64,000 nt of DNA from an uncultured Mycoplasmatota bacterium. Lineage in GTDB: Bacteria > Bacillota_I > Bacilli_A > RF39 > UBA660. The DNA lies in the NCBI GenBank assembly GCA_900550255.1, contig URQZ01000006.1, positions 3,392 through 67,391 of the forward strand, in the 5' to 3' direction. Under the pieces are notes generated by a model. The model saw nothing but the letters and a program-made list of their open reading frames with translations. It had not been told where the DNA came from and did not search any database. Position numbers and translations under genes: made by a program. Below are positions 3,225 through 22,878 of this stretch, one piece after another (position 1 is the stretch's first letter; every line of letters starts with the position of its first letter).

Positions 3225-3239
3225 CTTAGGAGGTAGAAT

Positions 3240-4175: not shown

Positions 4176-4176
4176 T

Positions 4177-4205
4177 AAAGCCTTGTGTTAATGTGGCTTT
4201 TTTTG
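4177..4205 (+). terminator. Rho-independent terminator
   Basis: AAAGCC...GGCTTT hairpin followed by a T-run. Confidence 0.5.
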
Positions 4206-4245
4206 ATATAATATGTAATGAATATAATGAAAAGGAAGTGTATAA

Positions 4246-4986: not shown

Positions 4987-4990
4987 TTAG

Positions 4991-5764
4991 ATGAATTTGA
5001 TGAAAGAACTTTATAATTATAGAGAATTATTAAAAACTAATATAAAAAAAGATATTAGAGGAAAATATAAGGGGTCTTGGTTAGGCGTTATTTGGACCTT
5101 TTTAAATCCTTTACTACAATTGTTAGTTTATTCTTTTGTTTTTCCTTTTATTTTAAGAATTAACGTTGAAAATTATACTATTTTTATGATTGTTGCTTTA
5201 ATGCCATGGAACTTTTTTACAACGGCAGTTCAACAGGGATGTGGTTGTATAGTTGCCAATGAAGGAATATTGAAAAAAGTGTATTTTCCACGTGAGATTT
5301 TACCAGTTTCAATTGTTACTAGTACATTAGTTAATTTTCTTATAACTTGTATTATTATGTTTGTATTTATAATATTTGGTGGTGTTGGAGTTACTTGGCA
5401 TGTATTGTTATTTCCGCTTATTATTTTAATTCAATATATAATTACTTTAGCGCTTGTTTTTATCTTATCAGCTATTGTAGTTTTCGTAAGAGATGTTGAT
5501 CATTTTGTCGGTATTGTATTGATGCTTGCTTTTTATGTAACACCAATCATTTATACTCCAGATATGTTACCTGCAAAATTTCAATGGGCTATAACTTTTA
5601 ATCCTATTGCTCAATTAATAAATGCATATCGTGATGTTTTATATTATCATCAATTACCTAATATGACTTCGCTTGGTATTGTAGGATTAATTAGTCTTGT
5701 TGCATTAGGACTTGGGTATATGATATTTAAAAAATTAGAAAGAAACTTTGTTGAGGAGTTGTAG
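4991..5764 (+). CDS. ABC-2 type permease (TagG/Wzm-like) of the glycopolymer exporter
   Basis: Six-TM ABC-2 pattern with 'GSWLGVIWTFLNPLLQL'. Immediately downstream of the ATPase. Confidence 0.8.
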   Translation: MNLMKELYNYRELLKTNIKKDIRGKYKGSWLGVIWTFLNPLLQLLVYSFVFPFILRINVENYTIFMIVALMPWNFFTTAVQQGCGCIVANEGILKKVYFPREILPVSIVTSTLVNFLITCIIMFVFIIFGGVGVTWHVLLFPLIILIQYIITLALVFILSAIVVFVRDVDHFVGIVLMLAFYVTPIIYTPDMLPAKFQWAITFNPIAQLINAYRDVLYYHQLPNMTSLGIVGLISLVALGLGYMIFKKLERNFVEEL

Positions 5765-5765
5765 T

Positions 5766-7559
5766 ATGGAAAAAAAATATATACATTATTGTTGGTTTGG
5801 AGATAAACCGCTACCAAAGTTAGCTAAAAAATGTATTAAAAGTTGGAAGAAATATTTACCAGATTATGAAATAATTAGATGGTCTGAAGAAAATGTTGAT
5901 TTAGAGGAATGCCCATTTATAAAAGAAGCTTATGAAAACAAAAAATGGGCTTTTGTTGCAGATTATGCTAGAACTAAAGCAATATATGAATATGGTGGTA
6001 TTTATTTTGATACTGATATGGAAGTTGTTAAGAATATAGATGAATTATTAAATACAGGTAATGGATTTCTTGGTGTTGAAGATTCTCATATGATTGCTTG
6101 TGGAGTATGGTATGAACCAAAAAAACATAGTTATTTGGCTACAGAAATGTTGAAATTTTATCGCAGTCAAAAAAGCTTTGATATAAATAATTTATTTTCT
6201 ATTAGTATTCCAAAAATCATTAGTTCAATTTTAACTGATTATGATGCAACGTTAAATGAAACACAAAAATTAAAACATAATGAAACAATATATAAAAGAG
6301 AATATTTTTATCCATACTCATATGATTTTCAAAACAATATTTTTACAGATGACACATGTATGATTCATTATTATGATGCAAGTTGGGTTCCAAAAGCGGA
6401 ACAAAGAGAAGTAAAAATATATCGTATTTTAGGTAAAAAAAATGGTAGAAAATTTATTAGTCTATGCCGATTTGCTCACCGTGCATTAAGAAAAATAGCT
6501 AGATTTTTATTATATCCACTAATTCTTTATAAAAGAAGAAAGAATATTATAAATAGCGTTTATTTAGAACAAATAAAAACTACAATAAGAAAGATAAATG
6601 CAAATAAATCTGAATACATTGTTTTTCATAACCCTAATTGGTTAGGAGTAACGAGCGCTACAACAGAGTTGTTTGACAATAGAGTAGAATGTGGTGAGTT
6701 ATTACGAAAAAAAGATATTAAGTTAATTGGAAATGCAATTTTAAATAATCAAATAAACCAAATCGTATTTAGTGCAATGTGTGTTGGTTGGAAAGATTTG
6801 GCAATTTATCTAAAAAAACAAAATCCTAATATAAAAATAAAAACTTTTTGGCATGGAAGTCATTCCCAAGTTCTAGAATCTTATGGATGGGATAGAAATA
6901 TGGAAATCTATAAATTGCATAAACAAGGAATTATTGATGTTATGGGATTTTGTAAAAAAAGTTTGATTGATTTTTACAAAAATCAGGGTTGTAATGTTGC
7001 TTTTATAACTAATAGAGTTAAATTACCTAAAATAACAAAATCACAAAAAAAAGAGGATAAATTAAGAATAGGGTTATATGCTTCTGCTAGTAATGTATGG
7101 CATAAAAATATGTTTACTCAGCTTGCAGCAGCATCTATGTTAGATAATGTCATTGTTGATATGGTTCCTTTAAATTCGGACGCAATATCTTTTGCCCAAA
7201 TGCTTGGTTTAGAATTAACTGGAGTTGAACATTCTGTACCACGTAAAGAATTGTTACAAAGATTTTCTAATAATGATTTAAATTTATATGTAACATTTAC
7301 AGAATGTGCTCCAATGCTTCCTTTAGAAAGTTTTGAATCTGGTGTTCCATGTTTGGTTGGTAATAATAATCACTATTTTTGCGACACAGAGTTAGAAAAA
7401 TTCTTGGTTGTTGATAATGAAACTAATATACTAGATATAACTAAAAAAATAGAAAATTGTCTTAACAATAAAGAAAAAATTCTAAATTTATATAAAGATT
7501 GGGTAAAAAATAATAATAAGCAAAGTCAAAAAGACGTTAAAAATTTTATTAACATGTGA
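5766..7559 (+). CDS. Two-domain glycosyltransferase: N-terminal GT32-type sugar-binding DXD domain plus a C-terminal GT-B-like domain
   Basis: 'YIHYCWFGDKPLP...IRWSEEN...DYARTKAIYEYGGIYFDTDMEV' matches Gly_transf_sug/GT32. C-terminal 'LYVTFTECAPMLPLESFESGVPCLVGN' is GT-B-like. Probable start is the ATG at 5766, after GGAG. Confidence 0.65.
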   Translation: MEKKYIHYCWFGDKPLPKLAKKCIKSWKKYLPDYEIIRWSEENVDLEECPFIKEAYENKKWAFVADYARTKAIYEYGGIYFDTDMEVVKNIDELLNTGNGFLGVEDSHMIACGVWYEPKKHSYLATEMLKFYRSQKSFDINNLFSISIPKIISSILTDYDATLNETQKLKHNETIYKREYFYPYSYDFQNNIFTDDTCMIHYYDASWVPKAEQREVKIYRILGKKNGRKFISLCRFAHRALRKIARFLLYPLILYKRRKNIINSVYLEQIKTTIRKINANKSEYIVFHNPNWLGVTSATTELFDNRVECGELLRKKDIKLIGNAILNNQINQIVFSAMCVGWKDLAIYLKKQNPNIKIKTFWHGSHSQVLESYGWDRNMEIYKLHKQGIIDVMGFCKKSLIDFYKNQGCNVAFITNRVKLPKITKSQKKEDKLRIGLYASASNVWHKNMFTQLAAASMLDNVIVDMVPLNSDAISFAQMLGLELTGVEHSVPRKELLQRFSNNDLNLYVTFTECAPMLPLESFESGVPCLVGNNNHYFCDTELEKFLVVDNETNILDITKKIENCLNNKEKILNLYKDWVKNNNKQSQKDVKNFINM

Positions 7560-7567
7560 GGTATAAT

Positions 7568-8506
7568 ATGATAGAAAAAAAGATAAAAAGAATTAAAAAG
7601 GGAGGAACTTTAGTTTTATTTCCTAAGGAATCATGTGAATATCAAGAAACCTTTGATTATATGTTTGAAAACAGTGTTGAAATAAATGAAACTTTAACAG
7701 GTGATACTATTCATGAAATAGCACGAATAATTAATTCAAAAGAATTAGAACAATTAATTTTAATTGATTATATTGATTCATATGGGATTTTGTTACCGCT
7801 TATAAAGGGGAAAACAAATGTCAAATTGATATTTACCAGCTCTGTTGCAAATTTTACTAATACATTTGTTTTAAACAATTTTAAAAAAATTATTAATTTT
7901 TACAATTTTAATTTAATTAAAAAAATTGGATGTTTTGATTATAATTTATATATAACATTGAAAAAGGCAAAATATCGTGTTGAATATATAATGCCAGATA
8001 TAAAGATTAATAAAACAAAGCCAATTAAGTCATCTGACATTGCTATCATAGGTAACGATTATGATCCAAACAATAATTATTATAATATGTTGAGCGCGTT
8101 AAAATTGGTTGATTATAAAAGGGTTAAAGTTAGAATAACACAACCTGTGACACAATCTTTTATAAATTTATTTGATATAAAAGCTGAAAATATAGAAGAT
8201 GAACGAAAATTACAACTAAATAATGAATTAAATCTATATGTGAATTTTACTAATTCAAATATTAGTAAAATTTTGAAGAGTATGGATAGTGGGATACCTT
8301 GTATTGTTGGTAATGTTGAAATGTTTGATGATAATGAATTTTTGAAAAAAATGTTAGTTGTTAAAGGTGATGACAATATAAATGACATTGCATCAAAAAT
8401 TGACGCTGTACGAAAAAATAAAAAATTAATTATAGAAGAATATTTGAAATTTCGAAAAAAATATAGTAAAAAAGCTGAAACTCAATTTAAAAAATTTATG
8501 AAATAA
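7568..8506 (+). CDS. GT-B-like glycosyltransferase-domain protein, a paralogue of the C-terminal domain of the upstream gene
   Basis: 'LNLYVNFTNSNISKILKSMDSGIPCIVGN' parallels 'LNLYVTFTECAPMLPLESFESGVPCLVGN' in the previous protein. ATG at 7568 follows GAGG. Confidence 0.5.
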   Translation: MIEKKIKRIKKGGTLVLFPKESCEYQETFDYMFENSVEINETLTGDTIHEIARIINSKELEQLILIDYIDSYGILLPLIKGKTNVKLIFTSSVANFTNTFVLNNFKKIINFYNFNLIKKIGCFDYNLYITLKKAKYRVEYIMPDIKINKTKPIKSSDIAIIGNDYDPNNNYYNMLSALKLVDYKRVKVRITQPVTQSFINLFDIKAENIEDERKLQLNNELNLYVNFTNSNISKILKSMDSGIPCIVGNVEMFDDNEFLKKMLVVKGDDNINDIASKIDAVRKNKKLIIEEYLKFRKKYSKKAETQFKKFMK

Positions 8507-8521: not shown

Positions 8522-9862
8522 ATGGAAAAAGTAACCGTATTATTTCAGAGTAGTCCTAATTATTCTGGAAATTCAAAAGTGATGTATGATTATATTAAGA
8601 GTAAATATAAAAATAAAATGAATTTGTGTTGGGTTATAGATAATAAAAAAGATTATGAAAATTTGAAAGAAAAACTTAACTGTGTTATGTACGGAAGTAA
8701 AGAAATGATGCAATTAATTTCAAAAGCAAATATTATTTTTACAACTCATGGGCAGTTAAAAGAGTATAAGCATGATAATCAAATTTATGTTAATCTTTGG
8801 CATGGCATAACTATGAAAAAACTTGGCTATATGATATCTGAAAAGAATATGGCTAAGCAAGATCAATTATATTGTGAACAATTACAAATTTGTACTGATT
8901 ACGTTATTGTCCCATCTAAATTTTGGCAATTGATTTTTTGTGCTATATTTAATGTCAATTTTTCTCATGTTTTGCCCCTTGGTTGTCCTAAATTAGATCC
9001 AATTATAAAAGCTGATGGCAAAGGAAATCTAGAAAAATTATTAGGAGAAGAAATTAAAAATTATAAAAAAATAATATATTATATGCCAACTTTTAGAAGT
9101 GGATGTGGAAGAAACGATTCTAATCCAAATTTAAATAATATTTTAAATTTAGAAGAATATAATGAACGTCTATTTTTAGATTATCTAGAAAATAATAATT
9201 ATTTATTATGTATAAAATACCATCCTGAAGAAAAATTGAATTTTAAGTATGATATATCAAATAATATCAAAATAATTGATGAGGAAAAACTTCAACTAAA
9301 TAATTTTTCTGTATATGATGTATTAAATGCGGCTGATTTATTAATTACCGATTATTCTTCACTTGGTTTAGAGTTTTCAATAAGTGATAAACCTGTTATT
9401 TATTTAGATACAGATTTGGAAGATTATCAAAAAAATAGAGGATTAATTTTTGATGACAAAGATTTTTGGTTTCAAGGAAATGATGTTAGCAATATAAAAC
9501 AATTACTTGATAAAATGGAAATTTATTTAAAAAAAGGAAAATACAAAAACAAAATGAAAGAAATATGGTTTGGCAATTTAAAAGATGGTGGTTTAGAACA
9601 AATATGTAATTATTTCTTTACAACAAATGGTTCTATTAATAATCAAATAAAATCAGGTGATAATTTAATATTTATTCAGCATAAGAAAATAGATGATTTG
9701 AATGAAAAAAATAAAAAATTAAATTTAGATAATGATTTTCTTAAAAGGAAAAATAAACAGCAAGAAAATGAATTAAATTTAATATATAATTCAAAATCTT
9801 GGAAATTGATGGAAAAAATTAGAAAAATAAAAAATAAATTTTTTAAATTTGTAAGAAAGTAA
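8522..9862 (+). CDS. CDP-glycerol glycerophosphotransferase (TagB/TagF family)
   Basis: Glyphos_transf hallmarks 'YVNLWHGITMKKLGY', 'IIYYMPTFR' and 'LLITDYSSLGLEF'. C-terminal K-rich coiled-coil tail. Confidence 0.8.
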   Translation: MEKVTVLFQSSPNYSGNSKVMYDYIKSKYKNKMNLCWVIDNKKDYENLKEKLNCVMYGSKEMMQLISKANIIFTTHGQLKEYKHDNQIYVNLWHGITMKKLGYMISEKNMAKQDQLYCEQLQICTDYVIVPSKFWQLIFCAIFNVNFSHVLPLGCPKLDPIIKADGKGNLEKLLGEEIKNYKKIIYYMPTFRSGCGRNDSNPNLNNILNLEEYNERLFLDYLENNNYLLCIKYHPEEKLNFKYDISNNIKIIDEEKLQLNNFSVYDVLNAADLLITDYSSLGLEFSISDKPVIYLDTDLEDYQKNRGLIFDDKDFWFQGNDVSNIKQLLDKMEIYLKKGKYKNKMKEIWFGNLKDGGLEQICNYFFTTNGSINNQIKSGDNLIFIQHKKIDDLNEKNKKLNLDNDFLKRKNKQQENELNLIYNSKSWKLMEKIRKIKNKFFKFVRK

Positions 9863-9882
9863 GTATAAAACTTTCTTTTTTT
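9855..9882 (+). terminator. Rho-independent terminator
   Basis: GAAAGT...ACTTTC hairpin plus TTTTTTT. Confidence 0.5.
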
Positions 9883-9936
9883 GCTGTTTTCTTTTTTAAT
9901 TTTAAATGCTATAATATGGATATTGGAGGTGTTACT

Positions 9937-11514
9937 ATGAATTTGTTATTGAAAAATGGTAAAAAAGTTTTGTTAGTTGTTTTTTCATTCTTTTTCATTT
10001 TTGGTGTTAAAGCATTAGAAAACAATTCTGTATCTAACATTAATAATCTTAGTAGTTGTGTTTTACAAAATTTAAATGGTAATAAATATTGTTTAGATGA
10101 AAATGGAGTAATGCAAAAGGGAATAATTAATGTAGATGGTACAAAATATTTCTTTGGAGAATACTCGGGAGTATTAAAATATGGATTTGTAACAGCACTA
10201 AATGGAGATGTGTATTATACCTCAAATGACGGAATAATAAGAACAGGAATCCAAATGATAAACGGAAATAAATATTATTTTAATGAAAATGGAATAATGC
10301 AAAAAGGTATAATTGATATAGATGGTACAAGATATTTCTTTGGAGAATACTCAGGAGTATTGAAGTATGACCTTGTGACAGCTTTAAATGGAGAAGTGTA
10401 TTATACATCGAATGATGGAGTAGTAAAAACAGGAATTCAAGAAATAGGCGGAAACAAATATTATTTTGATGCCAACGGAATAATGCGAAAGGGAATAATT
10501 GAAATAGATGGTACAAGATATTTCTTCGGAGAATACTCAGGGGTATTAAAATATGGATTTGTAACAGCTTTAAATGGAAATATATATTATACAGCAAATG
10601 ATGGAATAGTAAGAACAGGAATTCAAACAATAAATAAGAAAAAATATTTCTTTGGAGAGTATTCAGGAGTATTAAAATATGGACTCGTAACAGCTTTAAA
10701 TGGAGATGTGTATTATACAGCAAATGATGGAATAATAAGGACTGGAGTTCAAATAATAAATGGAGTTTTATATAAGTTTAATAGCGAAGGAAAATTAGAG
10801 AGTGGATGGACAACAAAAGCCGGCGCAACTTATTTTATGCAAGCTGATGGTACATTTTTAACGGGTTGGCATATAGTAATGGGTGAAAAATGCTTTTTCA
10901 ACTCATTAGGTCAACTTATTGGAAGAAATGTAAAAAGGATTATAGATGTTTCTAAATTTCAAGGTGAAATAGATTGGTATGCATTAAAAAATTCAAATAC
11001 TGTAGATGGTGTTATTTTAAGAATAGGATTAGGTAGTACATTACTTGATGAACAGGCTAAAAGAAATATTCAAAAGCTTAATGAATTGAATATTCCTTAT
11101 GGAATCTATTTGTTTAGTTATGCAGAAAATTCTCAAGAAGCAATTTGGGAAGCTGATTATACTAATAGATTAATAAAAGAATATGGAGCCAATCCAACAT
11201 TGGGAGTTTATCTAGATATTGAAAAATGGACTACTCATGCAGATGCTTCTGATAATATAAGTCAAGCAACTTATGAAGCAATTATTACAACTTATATAAA
11301 TAGAATGTCAAATTATGGCTATACAGCAAGAGTTTATACTGGTAAAAATTATGCCTTAAATAGATTAACAGAGTTAGCCCGTAGTTATGTCACTTGGATT
11401 GCTCAATATAATTATGTTTGTAATTATCCTGGATCATATAGAATATGGCAATATGGATCAGAGTATTATCCTGGAATAAATGGTGCGGTTGATACAAATG
11501 TTATGTTTAATTAA
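9937..11514 (+). CDS. GH25 muramidase (lysozyme/autolysin) with signal peptide and about 14 cell-wall-binding (CW_binding_1/choline-binding-type) repeats
   Basis: Signal peptide 'MNLLLKNGKKVLLVVFSFFFIFGVKA'. Repeated 'NGNKYYF.ENGIMQKGII.IDGTRYFFGEYSGVLKYGFVTALNG.VYYT'. C-terminal GH25 'IIDVSKFQGEIDWYAL...DGVILRIGLGST...GIYLFSYA'. Confidence 0.85.
   Translation: MNLLLKNGKKVLLVVFSFFFIFGVKALENNSVSNINNLSSCVLQNLNGNKYCLDENGVMQKGIINVDGTKYFFGEYSGVLKYGFVTALNGDVYYTSNDGIIRTGIQMINGNKYYFNENGIMQKGIIDIDGTRYFFGEYSGVLKYDLVTALNGEVYYTSNDGVVKTGIQEIGGNKYYFDANGIMRKGIIEIDGTRYFFGEYSGVLKYGFVTALNGNIYYTANDGIVRTGIQTINKKKYFFGEYSGVLKYGLVTALNGDVYYTANDGIIRTGVQIINGVLYKFNSEGKLESGWTTKAGATYFMQADGTFLTGWHIVMGEKCFFNSLGQLIGRNVKRIIDVSKFQGEIDWYALKNSNTVDGVILRIGLGSTLLDEQAKRNIQKLNELNIPYGIYLFSYAENSQEAIWEADYTNRLIKEYGANPTLGVYLDIEKWTTHADASDNISQATYEAIITTYINRMSNYGYTARVYTGKNYALNRLTELARSYVTWIAQYNYVCNYPGSYRIWQYGSEYYPGINGAVDTNVMFN
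10072..10925 (+). repeat. Coding tandem repeats of ~180 bp (three 20-aa cell-wall-binding repeats per unit), about four units
   Basis: Near-identical 60-aa blocks are visible in the translation. They generate the spurious antisense ORF 10280..10723. Confidence 0.8.
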
Positions 11515-11521
11515 GAAAAAA

Positions 11522-11552
11522 AAGATTGATAAATAAAGTCAATCTTTTTTTT
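11522..11552 (+). terminator. Rho-independent terminator
   Basis: AAGATTGA-taaataaag-TCAATCTT plus an 8-T run. Confidence 0.7.
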
Positions 11553-11621
11553 AAACTTTGGTAGGTAATATATTTATTGCTATATTGTCGTTTTTCCTGT
11601 ATAATTAACGTAGGTGGTAAC

Positions 11622-13748
11622 ATGAACTTATTAAAAAAAACATATAAAGATATTATTATCTTTTTAATTCCATTTTTAATATTTATAATATTGCTTTTTT
11701 CATATTACCCTGGTCTTATTACTTATGACGGTATTAATCAGTGGAATCAAGTTCAAAACGGAACTATTAATAATGCGCATCCATTTTTTAGTACATACTT
11801 TATGTTAATTATTTCAAAATTTTGGAATAGTCCAAGAGCGGTTTTAGTATTTCAAATCTTTATTTTTAGTTTCTTTTGGTCTATTATTTGTAATAAAACA
11901 AGAAAGAATAATTATGGTAGACAAGTAATATATACATTTTTAATAAGTCTTATTCCGATAATTAGTATGTATTCTATAACTTTATGGAAAGATGTTTTGT
12001 ATTCATATTATCTTATGATGTTAGCTTTTCTTACATATTATTTTGCTAAAGAAAAAAAATATAAAATGAATATTTTTGATTATATATGTTTAGGATTGTT
12101 ATTGTTTTTAATTTATAGTTATAGACATAACGCAATAGTTGCTGTAGTTTTATATTTTATAATTTTTACAATTTTAGTTTTAAAAAATAATAAAAATAGT
12201 ATAAAAAAGCTTTTAATAGTTTATTTAACATTTGGTGTCCTTCTTTTTGCGATATCAATTCCTAAATCAATATATTTGGAAAAAGAAGTCAAAAAGAAAG
12301 ATGAAGTGGCAATTGGTACGGTAAATCAGTATATAACATGGATTTTTGGCTCTTATATACAAGAAGAGAAAATATCAAAAAACGATTTGGAATTTTTAGA
12401 TAATATTATTGATATAAATTATTGGAAAAAAAGGTATAATCCATTTTTAATAAATTCAACATTCAATCCAGACAAAATAAATGAAAAATATATGATTAAG
12501 CATCAAAAAAAGTATCAAGATTTGTTTATAAAATATGTTTTGAAAAATCCAGGAATTTTTATTAAACATTATTTGAATGCAGATTCATTATTGATTGGGA
12601 TAAACTCCATCGATTATGGTTACATATATGTATATCCATTTACGGAATGGGAAAAAGGGGATTATGGCTTTGATAAAAGTATAAATAGCAAAATTCCAAA
12701 AATAGAAGAAGAAAATACAGAACTTATTAATTATACATATGATGGAATTTTAAAGTATTTTTATCAACCTGGATTGATTTTATATATATCATTATTAATT
12801 ACAGTATATTTATGTCATAAGAATAAAAATAAAAAATACTTTTTACTTTTATTACCAATGTTTTTAAATACTCTATCTTTGTTACCAGTTAATTTAGCTC
12901 AAGATTTAAGATATGTATACATAAACTATTTAACTTTAATATTACTAGGATTATTTGTTATACAAAAGGAAAAAAGAAGTGATGATATGAAAAACTATAC
13001 AAAACCAGAATTAAAACAAAAATCAAAAAAAAATCAAAAGATTTTATTGATAATCCCTGCCTATAATGAAGAGGAAAATATATTAAAAACCTATAAAACA
13101 ATTGTTAACTACAACAAACAAAACAAAACAAATTATGATGTTATAGTCATTAATGATGGTTCAACAGATAAAACAAGTGAAATATGTTTTAATAACCATA
13201 TACCAACAGTTAATCTTATTCATAATCTTGGTATAGGTGGCGCTGTTCAAACAGGATATAAATATGCTTATGAAAATGCTTATGATATAGCAATTCAATA
13301 TGACGGAGATGGACAACATGATGTTAGATATGTAAAAAAAATTGTTGAACCTATTTTAAATGGAAAAGCTGATTTTGTGATTGGTTCTAGATTTGTTAAA
13401 AAAAGCGATGAAAATTTTAATTCTACATTTGCTCGAAGAATAGGAATTAACATAATATCATTTTTTATAAAATTGGTTTCGAAGAAAAAAATATATGATA
13501 CAACATCTGGATTTAGAGCATGTAATAAAGCAATAATTCGCGAATTTGCATTTGAATATCCACTTGAATATCCTGAGCCAATAACAACGGTTGAATTAAT
13601 AAAAAAAGGTTATAGAGTTTCAGAAGTCGATGTAAAAATGAATGAAAGAAAAGGTGGCACTTCATCAATTAAATCTTGGAAAAATATATATTATATGATT
13701 AATGTTGTATTATCCATTTTAATAATTGGTTCAAGGAGGCAAAAATAA
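11622..13748 (+). CDS. Fusion protein: N-terminal ~11-TM GT-C-like membrane domain plus C-terminal GtrB/DPM1-like GT2 (polyprenyl-phosphate sugar synthase-like)
   Basis: C-terminus 'LLIIPAYNEEENI...VIVINDGSTDKT...QYDGDGQHD' matches GtrB-like GT2. The N-terminal first loop has 'YYPGLITYDGINQW' and many TM helices. ATG at 11622 follows TAGGTGGT. Confidence 0.6.
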   Translation: MNLLKKTYKDIIIFLIPFLIFIILLFSYYPGLITYDGINQWNQVQNGTINNAHPFFSTYFMLIISKFWNSPRAVLVFQIFIFSFFWSIICNKTRKNNYGRQVIYTFLISLIPIISMYSITLWKDVLYSYYLMMLAFLTYYFAKEKKYKMNIFDYICLGLLLFLIYSYRHNAIVAVVLYFIIFTILVLKNNKNSIKKLLIVYLTFGVLLFAISIPKSIYLEKEVKKKDEVAIGTVNQYITWIFGSYIQEEKISKNDLEFLDNIIDINYWKKRYNPFLINSTFNPDKINEKYMIKHQKKYQDLFIKYVLKNPGIFIKHYLNADSLLIGINSIDYGYIYVYPFTEWEKGDYGFDKSINSKIPKIEEENTELINYTYDGILKYFYQPGLILYISLLITVYLCHKNKNKKYFLLLLPMFLNTLSLLPVNLAQDLRYVYINYLTLILLGLFVIQKEKRSDDMKNYTKPELKQKSKKNQKILLIIPAYNEEENILKTYKTIVNYNKQNKTNYDVIVINDGSTDKTSEICFNNHIPTVNLIHNLGIGGAVQTGYKYAYENAYDIAIQYDGDGQHDVRYVKKIVEPILNGKADFVIGSRFVKKSDENFNSTFARRIGINIISFFIKLVSKKKIYDTTSGFRACNKAIIREFAFEYPLEYPEPITTVELIKKGYRVSEVDVKMNERKGGTSSIKSWKNIYYMINVVLSILIIGSRRQK

Positions 13749-14098
13749 TGACGTTTAATTTAAGATTAGGCTTGGTTATTGTATCATTATTGTTGATGAT
13801 AGTAGTAATAAAAATATTAAAAAAAGGAAGAATTCCAATAAAATACTCATTAATTTGGATTTTATCTAGCATTATCATTTTTTTAGTTAGTTTAATTCCA
13901 AGTTTATTTGAATGGATTTCAAGATTATTTGGGTTTGTGACCATGGCAAATATGGTTGTTGGAATTTTTATCTTTGTTTTACTTATGATAACAATTTCTT
14001 TAACAGTGATGATTGCAGGTCAAAAGAAAAAAACTACTATGTTAATCCAAGAAATCTCACTTTTAAAACATGAGGTTGAAAAAGATGGAAAAAAATAG
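13748..14098 (+). CDS. Small 3-4 TM membrane protein (DUF2304/GtrA-like) coupled to the GT2 gene
   Basis: 116 aa and hydrophobic. The ATG overlaps the upstream stop (ATGA) after GGAGG. Confidence 0.45.
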   Translation: MTFNLRLGLVIVSLLLMIVVIKILKKGRIPIKYSLIWILSSIIIFLVSLIPSLFEWISRLFGFVTMANMVVGIFIFVLLMITISLTVMIAGQKKKTTMLIQEISLLKHEVEKDGKK

Positions 14099-15524
14099 TA
14101 CAACTGATTCAAAAAAAACTTTAAAGTCTATAATATGCAATGTTTTTACTAGTGGTGTAACAATTATAGTTTCATTAATTTCTACAGTTGTTATAACGAG
14201 AATCATAACAGTAGCAGATTTAGGTATTGCTTCAAGTTTTAATAGTTTAAAAAGCATTTTAACTATTATATGCCTATTATCTGTTTATATTTCTATAAAT
14301 AGAATGATATTAGATATAGATGGAAATGATTATGAATATTTATCATCTATATATATTTTTTCTAGTTTGTTTTGTATTTTTATGTATATAATTTATATTA
14401 TATTTAGGAGCTTTTTTAATAATATCTTTGGCTTTGATACTAAAATGATGACTTTAATGTTCTCAATTATATTTATGATAAATGGTGGAACTATTCTAAC
14501 AAATTACTGGAATTTTAAAAACAAATATAAATTACTGTTTATTAATAATTTATTATCATCACCTATTTCTCAAATTATATCATTAGTTTTGTCGTATGTA
14601 TTATCGAGTCATAAATATTTGGGAAGAATTATTGGAATTGAAACCTTTAATATTATATTTGGACTAATTTATGGAATAATTATTTTGGTTAAGGGAAAAT
14701 TTTCTTTTAATAGAGATTATATAAGAAAAACTTTACATATTTGTATTCCTATGATTCCACATTTATTAGCTCAAATTATGCTTACAAGTTGTGATTTATT
14801 AATGATAAGAAATATTGCTGGAAATAATGCAGCTGGGGTATATAGTATGGCATATACAATATCAAATATATTGTATTTAATTTTAATTCAATTGTTAATG
14901 CCTTGGTCTCCATGGGTATATAGAAGAATGAAAAATAATGAAATAGAAACAATTGAAAAAAATTCAAAACTGTTAACTACTCTTTGTTGGTTTTTATGTT
15001 TAGGATTGTTTACTATTTCGCCAGAAATGATAAAATTATGTTTAGGAAAAGAGTATTACGAGGCTTCTTTTATAATTGCACCAATATGTGTTGGTATATT
15101 TTTTGAAGTAATGTATATTTACTTTTATGATATCGAGTATTTTTACAAAAAAAACAAACAGATTGCTATATTTTCTGTAATAGCTGCATTGTTGAATTTG
15201 TTATTAAATTATATTTTTATAAATAAATTTGGTTATAAAGCTGCAGCCTATACAACTTTCTTTAGTTATTTTGTATTATTTGTATTACATTATTTTGAAA
15301 TGAAAAGAATAGAAAAAAGAAAAATTTATGATGTTAAATTTATTATGGTAATGTCATTAATTCTTACTGGAATAGCATGTATATATATTTTGACTAATAA
15401 CAATATTTTTGTTCGTTATTCAGCTTTAATTTTTTCAACTGTATTAATTTTTGTAAAAAATAAAAAGATTTTATTAAATATTATTAAAAATAGGAAATTG
15501 GGAGATGTGTTAAATGATAAGTAA
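14085..15524 (+). CDS. Oligosaccharide flippase (Wzx-type, MOP superfamily polysaccharide biosynthesis protein)
   Basis: ~480 aa with 12-14 TM and the typical Wzx length and topology. Placed among glycosyltransferases. Confidence 0.7.
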   Translation: MEKNSTTDSKKTLKSIICNVFTSGVTIIVSLISTVVITRIITVADLGIASSFNSLKSILTIICLLSVYISINRMILDIDGNDYEYLSSIYIFSSLFCIFMYIIYIIFRSFFNNIFGFDTKMMTLMFSIIFMINGGTILTNYWNFKNKYKLLFINNLLSSPISQIISLVLSYVLSSHKYLGRIIGIETFNIIFGLIYGIIILVKGKFSFNRDYIRKTLHICIPMIPHLLAQIMLTSCDLLMIRNIAGNNAAGVYSMAYTISNILYLILIQLLMPWSPWVYRRMKNNEIETIEKNSKLLTTLCWFLCLGLFTISPEMIKLCLGKEYYEASFIIAPICVGIFFEVMYIYFYDIEYFYKKNKQIAIFSVIAALLNLLLNYIFINKFGYKAAAYTTFFSYFVLFVLHYFEMKRIEKRKIYDVKFIMVMSLILTGIACIYILTNNNIFVRYSALIFSTVLIFVKNKKILLNIIKNRKLGDVLNDK

Positions 15525-16470
15525 ACATGTAATAGGTAGATTAGGAAATCAAATGTTTCAATACGCTACAGTTAGAGCATTTCAATTAAAATATAGACCA
15601 AATGATCAAATTTTATTAGATTTTTCTGAAGTTTATGATAAGGATAATGTTGGTTATAAAGAAGAATTATCAGACTTTAATATTAGTCCAATAATTAAAG
15701 GTCGTATAAAAATGACATTAAAGCAAAAAACACTTAATAACTATTTAAATTTTGTTAAATTTTATAATGCAGCTAGAGATAAGTTTAATTATAGTGTTGA
15801 ATATAATAGAAAATTATATAAATTTGAAAATAAAATAGAAGAAAAATTAAATAAAAGTGGTTTATATAGTTTTAGGTTAGGATTTTATAATTTTCGTGAT
15901 TATGGCGTTAAAAATACTGTTTTTTATGGTACATTTGAATCACCAAAATATTTTGATGATATTAAGGAAGTTTTACAAAAAGAATTTACACCAAAATATG
16001 GATTGTTGGAAAAAAACAAAAAATTGTATAATCAAATTTTAGAAACAAATTCGGTTTGTATTACAATAAGACGAGGTGATTTTGTAAGTGACCCTCATTT
16101 TAAAAAAAATCTTTATGTATGTGATGAAAAATATTTTGAAACTGCAATAAATTTAATTAAGAAAAAAATAAATAATCCAACGTTTTTTGTCTTTAGTGAT
16201 GATGTAGAATGGTGTAAAAAAAATATGAAATTTCCTAAACAAACATATTTTGAAACTGGTGATGATCCAACTTGGGAAAAATTAAGATTAATGTATAGTT
16301 GCAAGCACTTTATTATTTCAAATAGTACATTTAGTTGGTGGGCACAATATTTATCAACAAATGAAAGTAAAATTGTGATTGCTCCAAGCAGATGGGGTAA
16401 TCTATCATATAAAGGGGAAAATGTCCAAACAGATATTTATGAAGATGATTGGATATTAGTTGATGTGTAG
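15514..16470 (+). CDS. GT11 alpha-1,2-fucosyltransferase
   Basis: 'IGRLGNQMFQYATVRAF' and 'FIISNSTFSWWAQYL' are GT11 signature motifs. Confidence 0.8.
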   Translation: MISKHVIGRLGNQMFQYATVRAFQLKYRPNDQILLDFSEVYDKDNVGYKEELSDFNISPIIKGRIKMTLKQKTLNNYLNFVKFYNAARDKFNYSVEYNRKLYKFENKIEEKLNKSGLYSFRLGFYNFRDYGVKNTVFYGTFESPKYFDDIKEVLQKEFTPKYGLLEKNKKLYNQILETNSVCITIRRGDFVSDPHFKKNLYVCDEKYFETAINLIKKKINNPTFFVFSDDVEWCKKNMKFPKQTYFETGDDPTWEKLRLMYSCKHFIISNSTFSWWAQYLSTNESKIVIAPSRWGNLSYKGENVQTDIYEDDWILVDV

Positions 16471-16477
16471 AAAATAT

Positions 16478-17455
16478 ATGGATAAAGTAACAGTAATCGT
16501 ACCAGTGTATAATGCTGAAAAATTTATATCTGATGGAATAAAAAGTGTGCTAAATCAAAATTATGAAAATATTGAATTAATATTAATAAATGATGGATCT
16601 TTAGATAACTCACTAGAAATAATAAAATTTTGGGAACAAAAATATCCTAATATAATTAAAGTATATAACAAAAAAAATTCAGGTGTTGGAAAAACAAGAA
16701 ATTTTGGTATAAAAAAAGCAACAGGAAAGTATATTACATTTTTGGATGCTGATGATTATCTAGATGAAGATTTTATAAGTCAAATGGTAAAAATGATAGG
16801 AGATAATGATATTATTATTGGTGGATATAATCAGGTTGATTTAAATCACAATATAGTATTTACTAGAAAAATTTTACCAAATGAATTATCAAAATTTAGA
16901 CAAATGGTAATTTGGGCAAAACTTTATCGTAGTAAATTTTTGATTGATAATCACATAATTTTTAATGATTTAAAAGTAGGAGAAGATATTACATTTTCAT
17001 TGGATACATACATAAATACTTCTAAGGTAAAATGCACAGACTATTCTGGATATAATAATGTTTCTAATGACTTTTCAGTAACTAAGAATATGGATTTAAA
17101 AAAAGATTTAGACATTAATGGGTTAATTAAAAATTTATGTATAAAATCGACTAAAGGAAATTTTATTGAACAAAATAAAAAGCAATTAGAATTCTTCTTT
17201 TTAAAATTATTTACGAATTATTTATATGATAAATCAAGGGTTTTAAATTATAGGGAATTAGAAAAATATTATAAAGAAGGAATTAATTTTATTAAAGATT
17301 TTTATCAAAAACATGATATGAATTTTTCGATAATGTATAATAAAACAGAGCCATTTAATATAAATCTTGCAATCAATATTGTAATAATGTCATATAAATT
17401 GAAATTTAGTAAAATTCTGTTAAAAATTTTAATAAGAAAATTTCATGTAAAATAG
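16478..17455 (+). CDS. GT2 family glycosyltransferase
   Basis: 'VTVIVPVYNAEKFI...IELILINDGSLDNS' and 'FLDADDYL'. Confidence 0.8.
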   Translation: MDKVTVIVPVYNAEKFISDGIKSVLNQNYENIELILINDGSLDNSLEIIKFWEQKYPNIIKVYNKKNSGVGKTRNFGIKKATGKYITFLDADDYLDEDFISQMVKMIGDNDIIIGGYNQVDLNHNIVFTRKILPNELSKFRQMVIWAKLYRSKFLIDNHIIFNDLKVGEDITFSLDTYINTSKVKCTDYSGYNNVSNDFSVTKNMDLKKDLDINGLIKNLCIKSTKGNFIEQNKKQLEFFFLKLFTNYLYDKSRVLNYRELEKYYKEGINFIKDFYQKHDMNFSIMYNKTEPFNINLAINIVIMSYKLKFSKILLKILIRKFHVK

Positions 17456-17467
17456 ATTTGGGTGATA

Positions 17468-18451
17468 ATGATGACTGATAATCTTAAAATAAGTATAATT
17501 GTTCCTGTATACAATTCTCAAAAAACGATTCAAAGATGCTGTGACAGTTTACTAAATCAGACATATAAAAATATTGAAATTATATTAGTAAATGATGGCT
17601 CAAAAGATGAGTCACTAAAAATTATTAATAGTTATGAATGTAAATATGATAATGTAATTGTCTTAAATCAAAAAAATAGTGGTGCTGGTGCTGCAAGAAA
17701 TAATGGATTATTAAAAGCAAGTGGCGAGTATGTGACATTCGTTGATTCAGATGATGAATTATCTAAAGATGCTATAAAAAATATGGTGAAGTGCTTGAAA
17801 CCTGATACAGATATTGTAATAAGTGGATTTAAGGAATTTGATGATAAAGGAAATGTCTTAATAGATATGATTCCTAAAAAAAATTATTGGACAGAATTTA
17901 AATTTACTTCTACAATGTTTAAACTTTATCGAAAAAAATATTTAATTGATAATAATGTTAAGTTTGCACATTTTAATGTTTTTGAGGATTTATATTTTTG
18001 CTTGTGTGCATATTCAAGATCGAATAATATTGAAATAAATAGTAATCAAGATTATATTATATATAAAAATGCTGATTCTATAACATCAAATTTTGAAAAT
18101 AGACCATTACAAGATTGTAAAAATGTTTTAGAAGCACTAAATAAAAATGTTAATTTTTATAAATATAGTAATTCTACAGTTGAATTCTTTTATTTAAAAA
18201 CATTAGTTCTTAATATAGTTGTTCAATTAGATGGACACAATTTAAATGATTTAAATAATATCTATATAAATGATTATAATTGGCTTAAATCCTTGAAAAT
18301 AACTTCAAAACCAATTAAATTTCATTGGCAAAAATATGAGGATTTTTCAATAAATTTTGCTGTTAATCTTTTCAACTTTATGACTAAGATACATTTAAAC
18401 AAATTTTTAATATTTGTTTTAAAAAGAATGAAAAAAATTAGATTTAAATAA
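17468..18451 (+). CDS. GT2 family glycosyltransferase
   Basis: 'ISIIVPVYNSQKTI...IEIILVNDGSKDES' and 'FVDSDDEL'. Confidence 0.8.
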   Translation: MMTDNLKISIIVPVYNSQKTIQRCCDSLLNQTYKNIEIILVNDGSKDESLKIINSYECKYDNVIVLNQKNSGAGAARNNGLLKASGEYVTFVDSDDELSKDAIKNMVKCLKPDTDIVISGFKEFDDKGNVLIDMIPKKNYWTEFKFTSTMFKLYRKKYLIDNNVKFAHFNVFEDLYFCLCAYSRSNNIEINSNQDYIIYKNADSITSNFENRPLQDCKNVLEALNKNVNFYKYSNSTVEFFYLKTLVLNIVVQLDGHNLNDLNNIYINDYNWLKSLKITSKPIKFHWQKYEDFSINFAVNLFNFMTKIHLNKFLIFVLKRMKKIRFK

Positions 18452-18465
18452 AATAGAGGTGGATT

Positions 18466-19467
18466 ATGAATATTTTATATACATTAAATGATAAATTTGT
18501 TCCTCAAGTTGGAGCTGGAATTTGTTCTATATGTGAAAATAATAAACAAATTAAAGATATCAATTTTTATATTATTTCTTATGGAATTACAATAAACAAT
18601 AAGAAAAAAATGCAAAAGTTAGTAAAAAAATATGAAAGGAATATTGAAATAATAGAACTTGAAAATTTAAACAAATATTTCAATTTTAATTTTGACACAT
18701 TAGGTTGGAATAAAGTAATTTTGTCACGACTTTTAATGGGAAATATTCTTTCTAAAAATATTGATAAAATTATTTATTTAGATGGTGATACAATAGTTAG
18801 AGGTTGTTTGGGTGAATTATGGAATTTAGATATGAAAAATAAAATAATAGGAATGAGTATAGAACCAACAGCTAATAAAAAAAGAAAAGAAAAATTAGGG
18901 TTAAAAGAATATCCATATTATAATTCTGGTGTACTTTTGGTTGATTTAAAAAAATGGAGAAAGTATAATATACAAGATAAAATAATTAATTATTATAAGG
19001 AACAAAATGGGAGACTTTTTGCAGCGGATCAAGATGCAATAAATGCTGTTTTAAAAGATCAAATTTTTACCATTTCTCCTAAATATAATTATTATAATAT
19101 TTTTGATCAATATTCATATAACTTTTGTTGTAGATTAATGAAGCCTTTAGAATATTCTAATTACATAAAAAAAGATGATTATATTTCTTCTCGAAAAAAT
19201 CCTATTATTATTCATTATTTGGGTGAAGAGCGACCTTGGCGAAAATATAATACACATAAGTATAGAAATGATTATAAAAAATATTTAAATATGACACCTT
19301 GGAAAGAAACAAAAGATGAAGATGGATGGCTTTTATATTTTACTTGTTGGAAAATATTTAATTTTTTTACTAAACCATTCCCAAAATTAAGATATAACAT
19401 AATTAATTCATTAATTCCTAAATTTATGAATTATAGAAAGAAGAAATTGAAAAATGAAAACAAATAG
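18466..19467 (+). CDS. GT8 family glycosyltransferase (RfaJ/LgtC-like)
   Basis: 'ILYTLNDKFVPQVGAGICSI', 'YLDGDTIVRGCLGELW' (DXD) and 'YYNSGVLLVDLKKWRK'. Confidence 0.75.
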   Translation: MNILYTLNDKFVPQVGAGICSICENNKQIKDINFYIISYGITINNKKKMQKLVKKYERNIEIIELENLNKYFNFNFDTLGWNKVILSRLLMGNILSKNIDKIIYLDGDTIVRGCLGELWNLDMKNKIIGMSIEPTANKKRKEKLGLKEYPYYNSGVLLVDLKKWRKYNIQDKIINYYKEQNGRLFAADQDAINAVLKDQIFTISPKYNYYNIFDQYSYNFCCRLMKPLEYSNYIKKDDYISSRKNPIIIHYLGEERPWRKYNTHKYRNDYKKYLNMTPWKETKDEDGWLLYFTCWKIFNFFTKPFPKLRYNIINSLIPKFMNYRKKKLKNENK

Positions 19468-20245
19468 TATTCATACATTTGTAGTACTAGCGTATAAAGA
19501 GTCAAAATACTTAGAAGAATGTATAAAATCAGTATTGAATCAAAAATATAGGAGTAAAGTTGTAATTGCAACATCTACACCAAATAAATTTATTGATAAA
19601 ATTGCGAAGAAGTATAATTTGGAAATTATTGAAAATAAAGAACATAGAAGTATAGGTGGGGATTTTGATTTTGCCATAAGTTGTGGTAAAACAGAACTTG
19701 TTACGGTTGCACATCAAGATGATGTTTATGATTATGAATATAGTTATAGTATGGTAGAGGCTTATAAAAAAAATAAAGAAGCTTTGATTATTTTTCCACA
19801 TTATTACGAAATTAAAAACTCTGGAAAAGTATATAAAAATACAAATTTAAATATCAAAAAAATACTATTATATCCGTTAAAAATTAGAAAATTTAGTAAA
19901 TATAAATTTAATAAACGTTTTAGTTTATGTTTTGGTAATCCAATAGGATGTCCATCTGTAACCTTCAATAGAAAAAAAATTGATTTACCTCTTTTTGAGT
20001 ATGAATTTAAATGTGATATTGATTGGCATGCATGGGAAAAATTAAGTAAAAAAAATGGCTCATTTATATATGTAAGTAAACAATTAATGGGCCATAGAGT
20101 TCATGATGAATCAACTACAACAGAGCTAATTAATGATAGAACAAGAACTAAAGAAGATTTAGAAATGTTTAAAAGATTTTGGCCAGATTTTATAGCAAAG
20201 TTTATTAATAAATTTTATGTTAAAGCTGAAAAAAATAATCAATAG
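19454..20245 (+). CDS. GT2-like glycosyltransferase
   Basis: 'HTFVVLAYKESKYLEECIKSVLNQ' is a GT2-like N-terminus. Overlaps the upstream gene by 14 nt. Confidence 0.55.
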   Translation: MKTNSIHTFVVLAYKESKYLEECIKSVLNQKYRSKVVIATSTPNKFIDKIAKKYNLEIIENKEHRSIGGDFDFAISCGKTELVTVAHQDDVYDYEYSYSMVEAYKKNKEALIIFPHYYEIKNSGKVYKNTNLNIKKILLYPLKIRKFSKYKFNKRFSLCFGNPIGCPSVTFNRKKIDLPLFEYEFKCDIDWHAWEKLSKKNGSFIYVSKQLMGHRVHDESTTTELINDRTRTKEDLEMFKRFWPDFIAKFINKFYVKAEKNNQ

Positions 20246-20323: not shown

Positions 20324-21418
20324 ATGAATAGTATTGAAAGTAAATTAAAACAGTTACGTTTAATGAATAATCTAACTCAAGAAGAACTTGCAAATAGATT
20401 AGGTATTGGACGTGATGCAGTTATAAGAATAGAAAAAGGGATAAGAAAGTTAAGTTTAGAAGAAATAAAAAAAATAACTGAAATCTACAAAATACCACTA
20501 TCTTATCTAGATGAAGATATTATTACTGACAATAATAAAACAATGAAAGGGATTATACTTGCAGGAGGATCTGGAACAAGACTTTATCCCATTACAGAGG
20601 GAATAAGTAAACAATTGATGCCAATATATGATAAACCAATGATTTATTATCCATTGTCAACTTTAATGTTAGCTGGTATTAAGGATATATTAATTATTAC
20701 AACAAAGGAAGAACAACAAGGATTTAAAAATCTTTTAAAGGATGGAAAACAATTTGGTCTTAATTTGGAATATATGATTCAACCTTCACCAGATGGACTT
20801 GCTCAGGCTTTTATTTTAGGAGAAAAATTTATAGGAAATGATGCTTGTGCGATGATTTTAGGTGATAATATTTTCTATGGAAGTGGTTTTGAAAATCTAC
20901 TTAGTCATGCAAAGAACAGTGCATTATCAGGAACAGCTACTATTTTTGGAAATCAAGTAAAAGATCCAGAAAGATTTGGAATTATGGAGTTAGATAAAAA
21001 TAGTAATGTTCTTAGTGTAGAAGAAAAACCAGAAAAACCAAAATCAAATTATGCTATTACAGGATTATATTTTTATCCTAGTGGTGTTAGTCAAAAAGCT
21101 AAAGAAGTAAAACCATCAGCAAGAGGAGAATTAGAAATAACTACTTTAAATGATTTCTATTTAAAAGATGAAAAATTAAAAGCTGAAAAACTAGAAGAAG
21201 GTTTTGTTTGGTTTGATACGGGTACATTCGATAGTCAATTAGAAGCAGCAAATATGATTAAGGCAATTGAAAGCAATCAAGATAAAGTTATATGTTGTCC
21301 AGAAAAAATAGCGTATGATAATAATTGGATTAATGAAGAACAATTAGAAAAAAGAGCAGAATTACTTCATAAGAACACTTATGGTAAATATTTAAAAAAA
21401 GTTTTAAAAAGGAGATAA
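20324..21418 (+). CDS. rmlA: Glucose-1-phosphate thymidylyltransferase (RmlA) with an N-terminal ~70-aa XRE-family HTH domain fused in frame
   Basis: N-terminal 'LRLMNNLTQEELANRLGIGRDAVIRIEKGIRKLSLEEIKKI' is an XRE HTH. It continues without a stop into 'MKGIILAGGSGTRLYPIT...SKQLMPIYDKPMIYYPL', which is RmlA. Confidence 0.8.
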   Translation: MNSIESKLKQLRLMNNLTQEELANRLGIGRDAVIRIEKGIRKLSLEEIKKITEIYKIPLSYLDEDIITDNNKTMKGIILAGGSGTRLYPITEGISKQLMPIYDKPMIYYPLSTLMLAGIKDILIITTKEEQQGFKNLLKDGKQFGLNLEYMIQPSPDGLAQAFILGEKFIGNDACAMILGDNIFYGSGFENLLSHAKNSALSGTATIFGNQVKDPERFGIMELDKNSNVLSVEEKPEKPKSNYAITGLYFYPSGVSQKAKEVKPSARGELEITTLNDFYLKDEKLKAEKLEEGFVWFDTGTFDSQLEAANMIKAIESNQDKVICCPEKIAYDNNWINEEQLEKRAELLHKNTYGKYLKKVLKRR

Positions 21419-21421
21419 ATA

Positions 21422-22863: not shown

Positions 22864-22878
22864 GAAAAGAGGTAATTT

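Follow-up and report, generated by a model that had tools for sequence, protein, structure and literature searches.

Can a single polypeptide hold both the enzyme by which a carrier lipid is charged with a sugar inside the cell and the enzyme that hands the resulting glycan to a polymer outside it? The question is raised by a gene of an uncultured Mycoplasmatota bacterium (GTDB lineage RF39; UBA660), found in a 64,000-nt stretch of contig URQZ01000006.1 (GenBank assembly GCA_900550255.1, positions 3,392 to 67,391) that was analyzed as a whole and is referred to as the window. The gene (11622..13748; all window features given here lie on the + strand) encodes a protein of 708 amino acids (aa) composed of a GT-C-fold membrane domain, a linker, and a GacI-like domain of glycosyltransferase family 2 (GT2), and is called the fusion gene below. 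GacI belongs to the GacI/J/K/L system, which provides the N-acetylglucosamine (GlcNAc) side chain of the group A carbohydrate in Streptococcus pyogenes, and the WpsA/B/G/J proteins of Lactococcus are of the same kind. Our analysis indicates that the 708-aa protein likely combines, in a system of this kind, the synthase of the donor with the transferase that acts on the outer side.

The window contains about 24% G+C, and within it an uninterrupted open reading frame (ORF) extends from 11577 to 13748. The fusion gene begins inside this frame with ATG 11622, which is preceded at a distance of 4 nt by a Shine-Dalgarno sequence, AGGTGG (11612..11617), read directly from the sequence. A preceding annotation made from the letters alone (the sequence-only reading) had described one polypeptide in which a multi-spanning membrane part of about 470 residues is joined to a GT2, and this description was borne out: there is a single 708-aa ORF, and the motifs that had been quoted, namely YYPGLITYDGINQW (aa 28-41), LLIIPAYNEEENI, VINDGSTDKT, and DGDGQHD, are all found in its product. 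The extent of the membrane part was refined to aa 1-447, with ten helices and both ends predicted to be cytoplasmic.

One source of doubt about the fusion was a metagenome-assembled genome (MAG; GCA_037071035.1, contig JBAMOX010000020.1; locus L030 in our numbering, in which L denotes related loci and P related proteins), where the gene is frameshifted and the annotated product is a 253-aa GT2 only, 100% identical to the window sequence. However, the lesion is a single 1-bp deletion corresponding to window position 11986, away from the domain junction, and what is left of the gene continues into the GT2 as an ORF of 593 aa with no stop codon between the two domains. The 253-aa annotation results from this deletion and is misleading, so we rejected it as a split relative; the L030 form, which stems from a fragmented assembly, is either a sequencing error or a recent pseudogene. 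Many further genes across the locus are fragmented in the same MAG (pyruvyl transferase, GH25 muramidase, and the GT-C domain), consistent with indel errors. By contrast, the 708-aa ORF is intact and 98-99% identical in five other assemblies, which come from different samples (L031, L032, L033, L034, and L035), and ten diverged protein clusters, at 56-67% identity, show the same two-domain architecture, both domains being conserved and the linker variable. For P0003 as well as for P0006, members of the cluster occur on many contigs. It is thus hardly conceivable that the fusion is a pseudogene or an artefact of assembly or sequencing, the latter being the outcome that the sequence-only reading had tied to a stop codon in relatives; it is a real and recurrent architecture. 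A separate contig (L037, 738-2723) carries a 662-aa frame, counted from stop to stop, that is 97% identical to the N terminus of the fusion protein over the first ~150 residues only; this contig is 2.8 kb long, derives from a low-coverage metagenome, and represents a chimeric assembly or a recombinant.

The N-terminal membrane domain (aa 1-447; 11622..12962) contains ten transmembrane (TM) helices. It was modeled with AlphaFold2 from an alignment with 92 standalone homologues (93 sequences in all), and the model (predicted local distance difference test [pLDDT] 91.6, predicted template modeling score [pTM] 0.90) predicts a GT-C-type fold. The predicted polytopic arrangement is like that of solved GT-C enzymes and shares with them two juxtamembrane helices, which the first outer loop forms behind TM1 (aa 35-46 and 55-65); the ~150 residues between TM7 and TM8 (aa 226-378) are predicted to fold into a helical domain on the outer side. 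Profile searches identified no established family for the domain: at E ≤ 10, Pfam returned only noise for aa 1-470 (Wzy_C, 0.017; GtrII, 0.19), NCBIfam gave no match for the N-terminal part, and a profile of the 93 sequences found no PDB chain at E ≤ 10. Relatives of the domain were more telling. The 26.1-bit gathering cut-off of PMT_2 (PF13231), the family to which GacL has been assigned (PMC8035078), is reached by two of the 93 (P0052, 27.9 bits; P0057, 26.1 bits), with matches that span nearly the whole profile. DUF6020 (PF19484) is matched weakly by two of the 93 close relatives, the other 91 giving no match, and by 44 of 66 more distant, longer relatives (best E-value 6.5e-94). The region homologous to the window domain corresponds to DUF6020 profile positions ~200-600, and DUF6020 proteins have an additional ~130-270 N-terminal residues; the invariant residues described below are common to the DUF6020-matching relatives and the window domain. 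Since the window protein falls below both Pfam thresholds, we assigned it to neither PMT_2 nor DUF6020; its N-terminal domain is a GT-C-fold protein of an unannotated family, for which DUF6020 is a sister group and PMT_2 a remote relative. The family is large: in an exhaustive profile search, 625 cluster representatives reached E ≤ 1e-30, a number that rises to 4216 at E ≤ 1e-10. Keyword searches found no mention of DUF6020 in the literature library that they covered.

The loops KTRKNNYGR, KEKKYK, KNNKNSIKK, and HKNKNKK alternate with the remaining loops and, by the positive-inside rule, are predicted to be cytoplasmic; therefore, both termini of the membrane domain, and hence the GT2, would be located in the cytoplasm (N-in/C-in, 10 TM), whereas the conserved residues of the GT-C domain are predicted to lie outside. 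The mean frequency of the most common residue is 0.79-0.96 in extracytoplasmic loops (EL) EL1, EL2, EL3, and EL5, as compared with 0.24-0.62 in the cytoplasmic segments, and none of the 45 positions with at least 97% conservation is cytoplasmic. The polar residues that are invariant in the 93 sequences are D36, Q40, H53, K123, D124, R168, N170, N278, H316, Q427, D428, and R430, and four of them (D36, K123, D124, and R168) are still invariant in all 66 distant relatives. Asp36 (codon 11727..11729), present in 93 of 93 family members, is a candidate catalytic acid. Characteristically, GT-C enzymes have their catalytic Asp a few residues past TM1, and the domain combines a conserved acidic residue in its first extracytoplasmic loop with a predicted active site on the outer face.

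The two catalytic domains are connected by a Lys-rich cytoplasmic linker of ~25 residues (aa 448-472; 12963..13037) that is variable in sequence and disordered in the full-length model (pLDDT < 50 over aa 453-468). It includes Met456 (ATG 12987), a position occupied by Met in 9 of 11 fusion proteins, which looks like a relic of the start codon of a once-separate GT2 gene. We considered Met456 as an internal start yielding a free GT2 and rejected it, as there is no usable Shine-Dalgarno sequence (AAGGA lies 17 nt upstream). The GT2 domain itself (aa 473-708; 13038..13745) matches PF00535 over aa 476-641 (E 3e-23, 83 bits) and contains a DGD sequence of the DxD type (aa 561-563; 13302-13310) as well as a TTSGFR motif; in the full-length AlphaFold2 model, aa 474-670 form a GT-A fold of alternating strands and helices, followed by a single C-terminal hydrophobic helix (aa 686-704). 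Its best solved relatives are DPMS (5mlz, 4.6e-17), GtrB (5ekp, 2e-10), and ArnC (6e-07), in agreement with the earlier assignment of the C-terminal part to the DPM1/GtrB type. NCBIfam gave partial matches, all below the equivalog cut-offs (AglJ, 84 bits versus 325; PpgS, 83 versus 370; ArnC, 46 versus 529). Since the solved relatives are all polyprenyl-phosphate glycosyltransferases and the equivalog scores are low, the class of the enzyme is clear, but its sugar is not fixed by these matches.

The next gene (13748..14098) encodes a small membrane protein of 116 aa with ~3 TM helices, which the sequence-only reading had called DUF2304/GtrA-like and had placed, together with the fusion protein, in a GtrA/GtrB/GtrC three-component scheme. 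The first half of that label stands, as the protein matches DUF2304 (PF10066, E 1.6e-21) and resembles GacJ, WpsB, and Rv3632, while the second does not: neither this protein, even at E ≤ 10, nor any other locus ORF scanned matched GtrA (PF04138). The three-component scheme was consequently abandoned, DUF2304 being an activator family and the flippase candidate being the Wzx-like gene that comes next. The ATGA overlap described between the two genes turned out to be TAATG, in which the stop codon (TAA, 13746-13748) and the start codon (ATG, 13748-13750) share 1 nt, and the AAGGAGG site upstream of this ATG is the DUF2304 gene's own. GacJ, WpsB, and Rv3632 are three-helix DUF2304 membrane proteins that form complexes with GacI, WpsA, and PpgS and stimulate them (bioRxiv 10.1101/180810; PMC10821137), and GacI-type GT2s have no TM segments and require a membrane partner (PMC10821137). 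The window genes look like such a pair, in that the GT2 does not end in a TM pair as GtrB does and the DUF2304 gene follows immediately 3'. The same position is occupied by DUF2304 in 24 of 24 loci (L001-L024) and in every other related locus that reaches past the GT2, and the gene is kept beside every fusion. Because it is kept even though the GT2 is already covalently tethered to the membrane, this suggests that DUF2304 proteins of the GacJ type do more than anchor the synthase. The Wzx-type flippase candidate (14070..15524; PF13440, E 4e-14, and PF01943) is GacK/WpsG-like, its relatives start five codons later, and a Wzx-type gene has the same position in L009, L010, L019, and L036.

Split versions of the fusion gene, for which comparative genomics had been proposed, were found as adjacent genes. 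Members of the GT-C family are mostly standalone proteins of ~450-480 aa, and in every readable context, comprising 14 distinct loci (L005, L010, L025/26, L027, L028, L029, L036, L038, L039, L040, L044, L045, L047, and L048), a GT-C gene, a gene for a ~240-aa GT2, and a DUF2304 gene follow one another on the same strand, separate but contiguous, the GT-C gene being spaced from the GT2 gene by -8 (overlap) to 398 nt. Of the family's 150 best representatives, 75 stand alone and eight carry a C-terminal GacI-like GT2; two others (P0300 and P0268) end in different GT2 domains, which brings the GT-C::GT2 architecture to 10 of 150 overall. Single cases are a protein with an acyltransferase (P0245), one of 976 aa with a second GT-C-like domain, DUF2142 (P0261), and one in which an upstream GT32-like gene is fused to the GT-C N terminus instead (P0075); the N-in/C-in topology is consistent with partners being fused on either side. 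In a neighbor-joining tree without support values, the fused forms fall into one clade that also holds unfused members, a pattern compatible both with one fusion followed by fission and with several independent fusions. In the literature library covered by keyword searches, no description of a natural fusion between a GT-C protein and a polyprenyl-phosphate GT2 was found. In some relatives, more than one GT-C-type protein precedes the GT2-DUF2304 pair, as seen with the tandem paralogues of L028 (4494-5960 and 5944-7410) and the DUF2142 protein of L048 (2009-3991).

The first 28 kb of the window constitute a cell-wall polysaccharide locus, beyond which housekeeping genes are found. RmlA, RmlC, RmlD, and RmlB (20324..23883), the genes for deoxythymidine diphosphate (dTDP)-rhamnose, mark it as a cluster for a rhamnose-containing cell-wall polysaccharide. 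A backbone module of two GT2 genes and an ABC-2 exporter (2295..5764; ATPase 4246-4986, permease 4991-5764) contains at least six glycosyltransferase (GT) domains and probably supplies the acceptor polymer. Behind the Wzx-like gene lie five packed genes for cytoplasmic GTs (15514..20245; GT11, GT2, GT2, GT8, and GT2), which by gene order and lactococcal precedent (PMC10821137) are candidates to extend a lipid-linked sugar before flipping. In streptococcal, lactococcal, and enterococcal loci, a rhamnan built on undecaprenyl diphosphate leaves the cell through an ABC transporter and then receives its decoration from an externally acting system of the GacI/J/K/L type (10.1101/180810; PMC8035078), and the layout of the window locus matches theirs.

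Compared by description, all four part types of GacI/J/K/L are matched in the window: a TM-less GT2, a DUF2304 activator, a Wzx flippase, and a PMT_2-related GT-C, together with a rhamnose locus and an ABC exporter (10.1101/180810; PMC8035078). The window differs in that the GT-C and the GT2 form one polypeptide instead of separate ones, a variant feature of this system type, and in that the GT-C comes first in the gene order; unlike GacL, its GT-C belongs to a different, unannotated family and has no PMT_2 match. The WpsA/B/G/J system, which builds the pellicle polysaccharide on GlcNAc-P-C55 and links it to rhamnan, consists of a GacI/J-like primer pair, cytoplasmic GTs, a Wzx protein, and a GT-C proposed to attach the product (PMC10821137), and thereby also matches the five GT genes of the window and the galactofuranose/GLF genes of its relatives. 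By description, however, the lactococcal parts are all separate proteins, the GT-C is encoded at the far end of the cluster, and the polymerase/chain-length pair WpsH and WpsI has no clear counterpart in the window.

More distant parallels concern single parts. In Mycobacterium tuberculosis, PpgS (Rv3631), a GT2 that synthesizes polyprenyl-phosphate-HexNAc (HexNAc, N-acetylhexosamine), is co-transcribed with the stimulating DUF2304 protein Rv3632 (10.1101/180810). The mycobacterial genes are unfused, and the window GT2, at 83 bits against a cut-off of 370, is not an equivalog of PpgS. The donor made by PpgS is consumed by the GT-C Rv3779. In Mt-Ppm1 (Rv2051c), a polyprenyl-phosphate sugar synthase (D2) stands behind a polytopic domain (D1), and depending on the species the two are fused or encoded by adjacent genes whose products interact; but D1 is a six-TM anchor, is not a GT-C, and does not consume the product of the synthase (PMC3485146). 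GtrA/GtrB/GtrC resembles the proposed system in its cytoplasmic synthesis of a polyprenyl-phosphate sugar, its flipping, and its extracytoplasmic transfer by a GT-C, whereas the window has no GtrA-family match, a single C-terminal helix in its GT2, and a flippase candidate of the Wzx type. GtrB has a C-terminal TM pair. Finally, a GT2 whose N terminus is tethered to a membrane partner is known from natural GacJ-GacI fusions (Geobacter and Desulfuromonas) and from an engineered WpsB-WpsA fusion (10.1101/180810; PMC10821137). The latter is active only when the N terminus of the GT2 is tethered, the reverse order being inactive, and the natural GacJ-GacI proteins have the same order (PMC10821137). 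In the window, by contrast, the partner fused is the GT-C, and DUF2304 remains a separate gene.

From the folds, topology, conservation, gene order, and the fused and split relatives described above, we infer the enzyme activities, the sugar, the acceptor, and the physical coupling in the following scheme. The C-terminal GT2, together with the co-translated DUF2304 protein, would load a sugar, by analogy probably a HexNAc, from its nucleotide sugar onto undecaprenyl phosphate. The five downstream GTs may then, with somewhat better than even chances, lengthen the lipid-linked sugar to a short oligosaccharide, and the Wzx-like protein would flip the lipid-linked glycan to the outer leaflet. There, the GT-C domain, with an outer-face site formed by D36, H53, K123/D124, R168/N170, and Q427-D428-R430, would attach the glycan to the rhamnose-containing wall polysaccharide that the ABC transporter exports, thereby freeing undecaprenyl phosphate. 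The fusion itself probably arose when two neighboring genes lost the stop codon and spacer that had kept them apart, and it is workable because both ends of the GT-C are predicted to be cytoplasmic and a GT2 of this type tolerates an N-terminal tether.

How large a glycan is transferred is the point on which the evidence is most divided. By analogy with the lactococcal scheme, in which GlcNAc-P-C55 made by WpsA/B was shown experimentally to be extended by cytoplasmic GTs (PMC10821137), the donor is, in our opinion by a small preponderance, an oligosaccharide built on the lipid-linked sugar and moved en bloc. This reading is favored by the GT, GLF, or fucose-activation (FKP) genes that stand between DUF2304 and Wzx in L025, L028, and L029, by the five GT genes after Wzx in the window, and by the fact that the backbone module, with its at least six GT domains, has GTs of its own. 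It is also favored by the lack of any other starter for a second Wzx-dependent glycan, since the priming phosphoglycosyl transferase families PF02397 and PF00953 were absent from the matches for the locus ORFs scanned. The genes between DUF2304 and Wzx, the GTs of the backbone module, and the lack of another starter also speak against a GacL-like process, in which a monosaccharide-P-undecaprenol made by the GT2 is flipped by Wzx and supplies the single sugar that the GT-C adds to the rhamnan as a side chain, while the downstream GTs serve elsewhere. Such a process nevertheless accounts for the set of synthase, DUF2304, Wzx, and GT-C genes, the order of which mirrors gacI-J-K-L with its GlcNAc-P-undecaprenol donor (10.1101/180810), and for the position of Wzx directly after DUF2304, with no GT between, in the window, L027, and L036; we regard it as a serious, if less likely, alternative.

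The remaining explanations deny the N-terminal domain the role proposed here or assign it another target. It might be an inert anchor or scaffold that only positions or stimulates the GT2, the part that D1 plays in Mt-Ppm1, where a membrane domain is fused to a polyprenyl-phosphate sugar synthase with which, in other species, it interacts as the product of an adjacent gene (PMC3485146), and the dependence of TM-less GacI-type GT2s on a membrane partner (PMC10821137) points in the same direction. An anchor, however, would not preserve 30 invariant residues across 93 members, the polar ones all on the outer face, nor D36, K123, D124, and R168 in 66 distant relatives; moreover, family members are mostly standalone, and DUF2304, the known membrane partner, is still found beside every fusion, which makes this explanation very improbable. 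It is also improbable, albeit to a lesser degree, that the GT-C domain acts on another acceptor, such as a teichoic acid or a surface protein, or polymerizes repeats, so that the fusion would reflect shared use of the donor only. A TagF-like glycerophosphotransferase gene (8522..9862) does lie two genes 5' of the fusion gene (in L031, a pyruvyl-transferase gene is found there), two or three GT-C-type genes occur per locus in relatives (L028, L048, and P0261), and PMT_2-type enzymes serve many acceptors (PMC8035078). On the other side, the gene is always found within polysaccharide loci with ABC exporters, accompanied by rml genes in the window. Transfer to another acceptor is, in any case, a variant of the proposed union of synthase and transferase and not its exclusion, and the present data do not separate the acceptors.

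Several observations weigh against the union of a donor synthase and an outer transferase as we propose it. Many GT2-DUF2304 loci have no GT-C family member within 8 kb, so the pairing is not obligatory. The window domain matches neither PMT_2 nor DUF6020 in Pfam at E ≤ 10, neither Pfam nor NCBIfam offers a dedicated model for its family, and the Foldseek E-values of the N-terminal domain are weak (best 4e-3). That D36 corresponds to the catalytic Asp known from solved GT-C structures is putative and deduced from its position, and the use of a polyprenyl-phosphate-linked donor by the N-terminal domain is suggested by its fusion or adjacency to the synthase. The five downstream GTs could serve the synthesis of the backbone, which would favor transfer of a single sugar. 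Furthermore, the full-length model has a pTM of 0.73 and a disordered linker; it thus gives no sign of a fixed interface between the domains, the relative orientation of which is not defined.

The type of system proposed for the 708-aa protein is already known; what is new is the union of its two catalytic ends in a single polypeptide and the assignment of a DUF6020-related GT-C family without annotation to such a system as its probable function. Members of this family are currently labeled hypothetical in MAGs of gut Bacilli and Clostridia. In Gram-positive bacteria, decoration of wall polysaccharides and teichoic acids outside the cell shapes phage receptors, antigenicity, and envelope integrity, and it has been attributed to separate proteins that act on the two sides of the membrane. 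A recurrent natural fusion of the first, cytoplasmic enzyme with the last, extracytoplasmic one is Rosetta-stone evidence that both deal with a common lipid-linked glycan, and it suggests that they sit together in the membrane. A single polypeptide with both activities would suit structural work and glycoengineering. A bolder idea, which we consider unlikely, is that the GT-C, the undecaprenyl-phosphate-sugar synthase, DUF2304, and perhaps Wzx form an obligatory trans-bilayer complex in which the released undecaprenyl phosphate is returned to the GT2 of the same polypeptide. If true, a scarce carrier lipid would be recycled locally rather than by free diffusion through a shared pool, and the DUF6020-related family would be a general glycan-to-rhamnan transferase of uncultured gut Bacilli.

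Several other features of the locus deserve mention. Directly 5' of the fusion gene lies a gene for a GH25 muramidase with choline-binding repeats (9916..11514), a shorter version of which is found in the same place in L031. Between the two genes, a hairpin of the form A8-GATTGA...TCAATC-T8 (~11517-11553), which fell short of the criteria of the terminator scan, is followed by a promoter-like TTGCTA-17 nt-TATAAT (11577..11605); the latter is weak evidence, as the promoter scan was uninformative in this AT-rich DNA (118 promoter-like sites versus 122 expected from shuffled sequence). A second fusion of a membrane domain to a glycosyltransferase is encoded at 88..2295 (735 aa), where an O-antigen-ligase-like domain (PF13425, E 2e-44) is joined to a cytoplasmic GT4 (PF00534/PF13692); its membrane domain is unrelated in sequence to the GT-C domain of the fusion gene (hhalign probability 1.6%). 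The locus also encodes a GT32-like::GT4 protein, an acyltransferase, an epimerase, a GT4, and an Alg14/Alg13-like pair. An ORF of ~300 aa without a Pfam match (7556..8506) lies directly 3' of the GT32-like gene, and ORFs of this kind follow GT32-like genes in L025 (7050-7967), L028 (2298-3179), L031 (1259-2170), and L047 (858-1751) as well; in L025 the GT-C gene comes directly next, while elsewhere other genes stand between. The RmlA gene (20324..21418) is unusual in that its NTP_transferase domain (aa 75-312) is preceded in frame by an N-terminal XRE-type helix-turn-helix domain (HTH_3, aa 8-62, E 6e-14), an extension that resembles a regulator. Lastly, the first of the five packed GT genes (15514..16470) belongs to the fucosyltransferase family GT11, and L028 contains, right after DUF2304, a gene resembling fucokinase/guanosine diphosphate (GDP)-fucose pyrophosphorylase (8962-11967), a hint that the side chain made by these gut bacteria may contain fucose.

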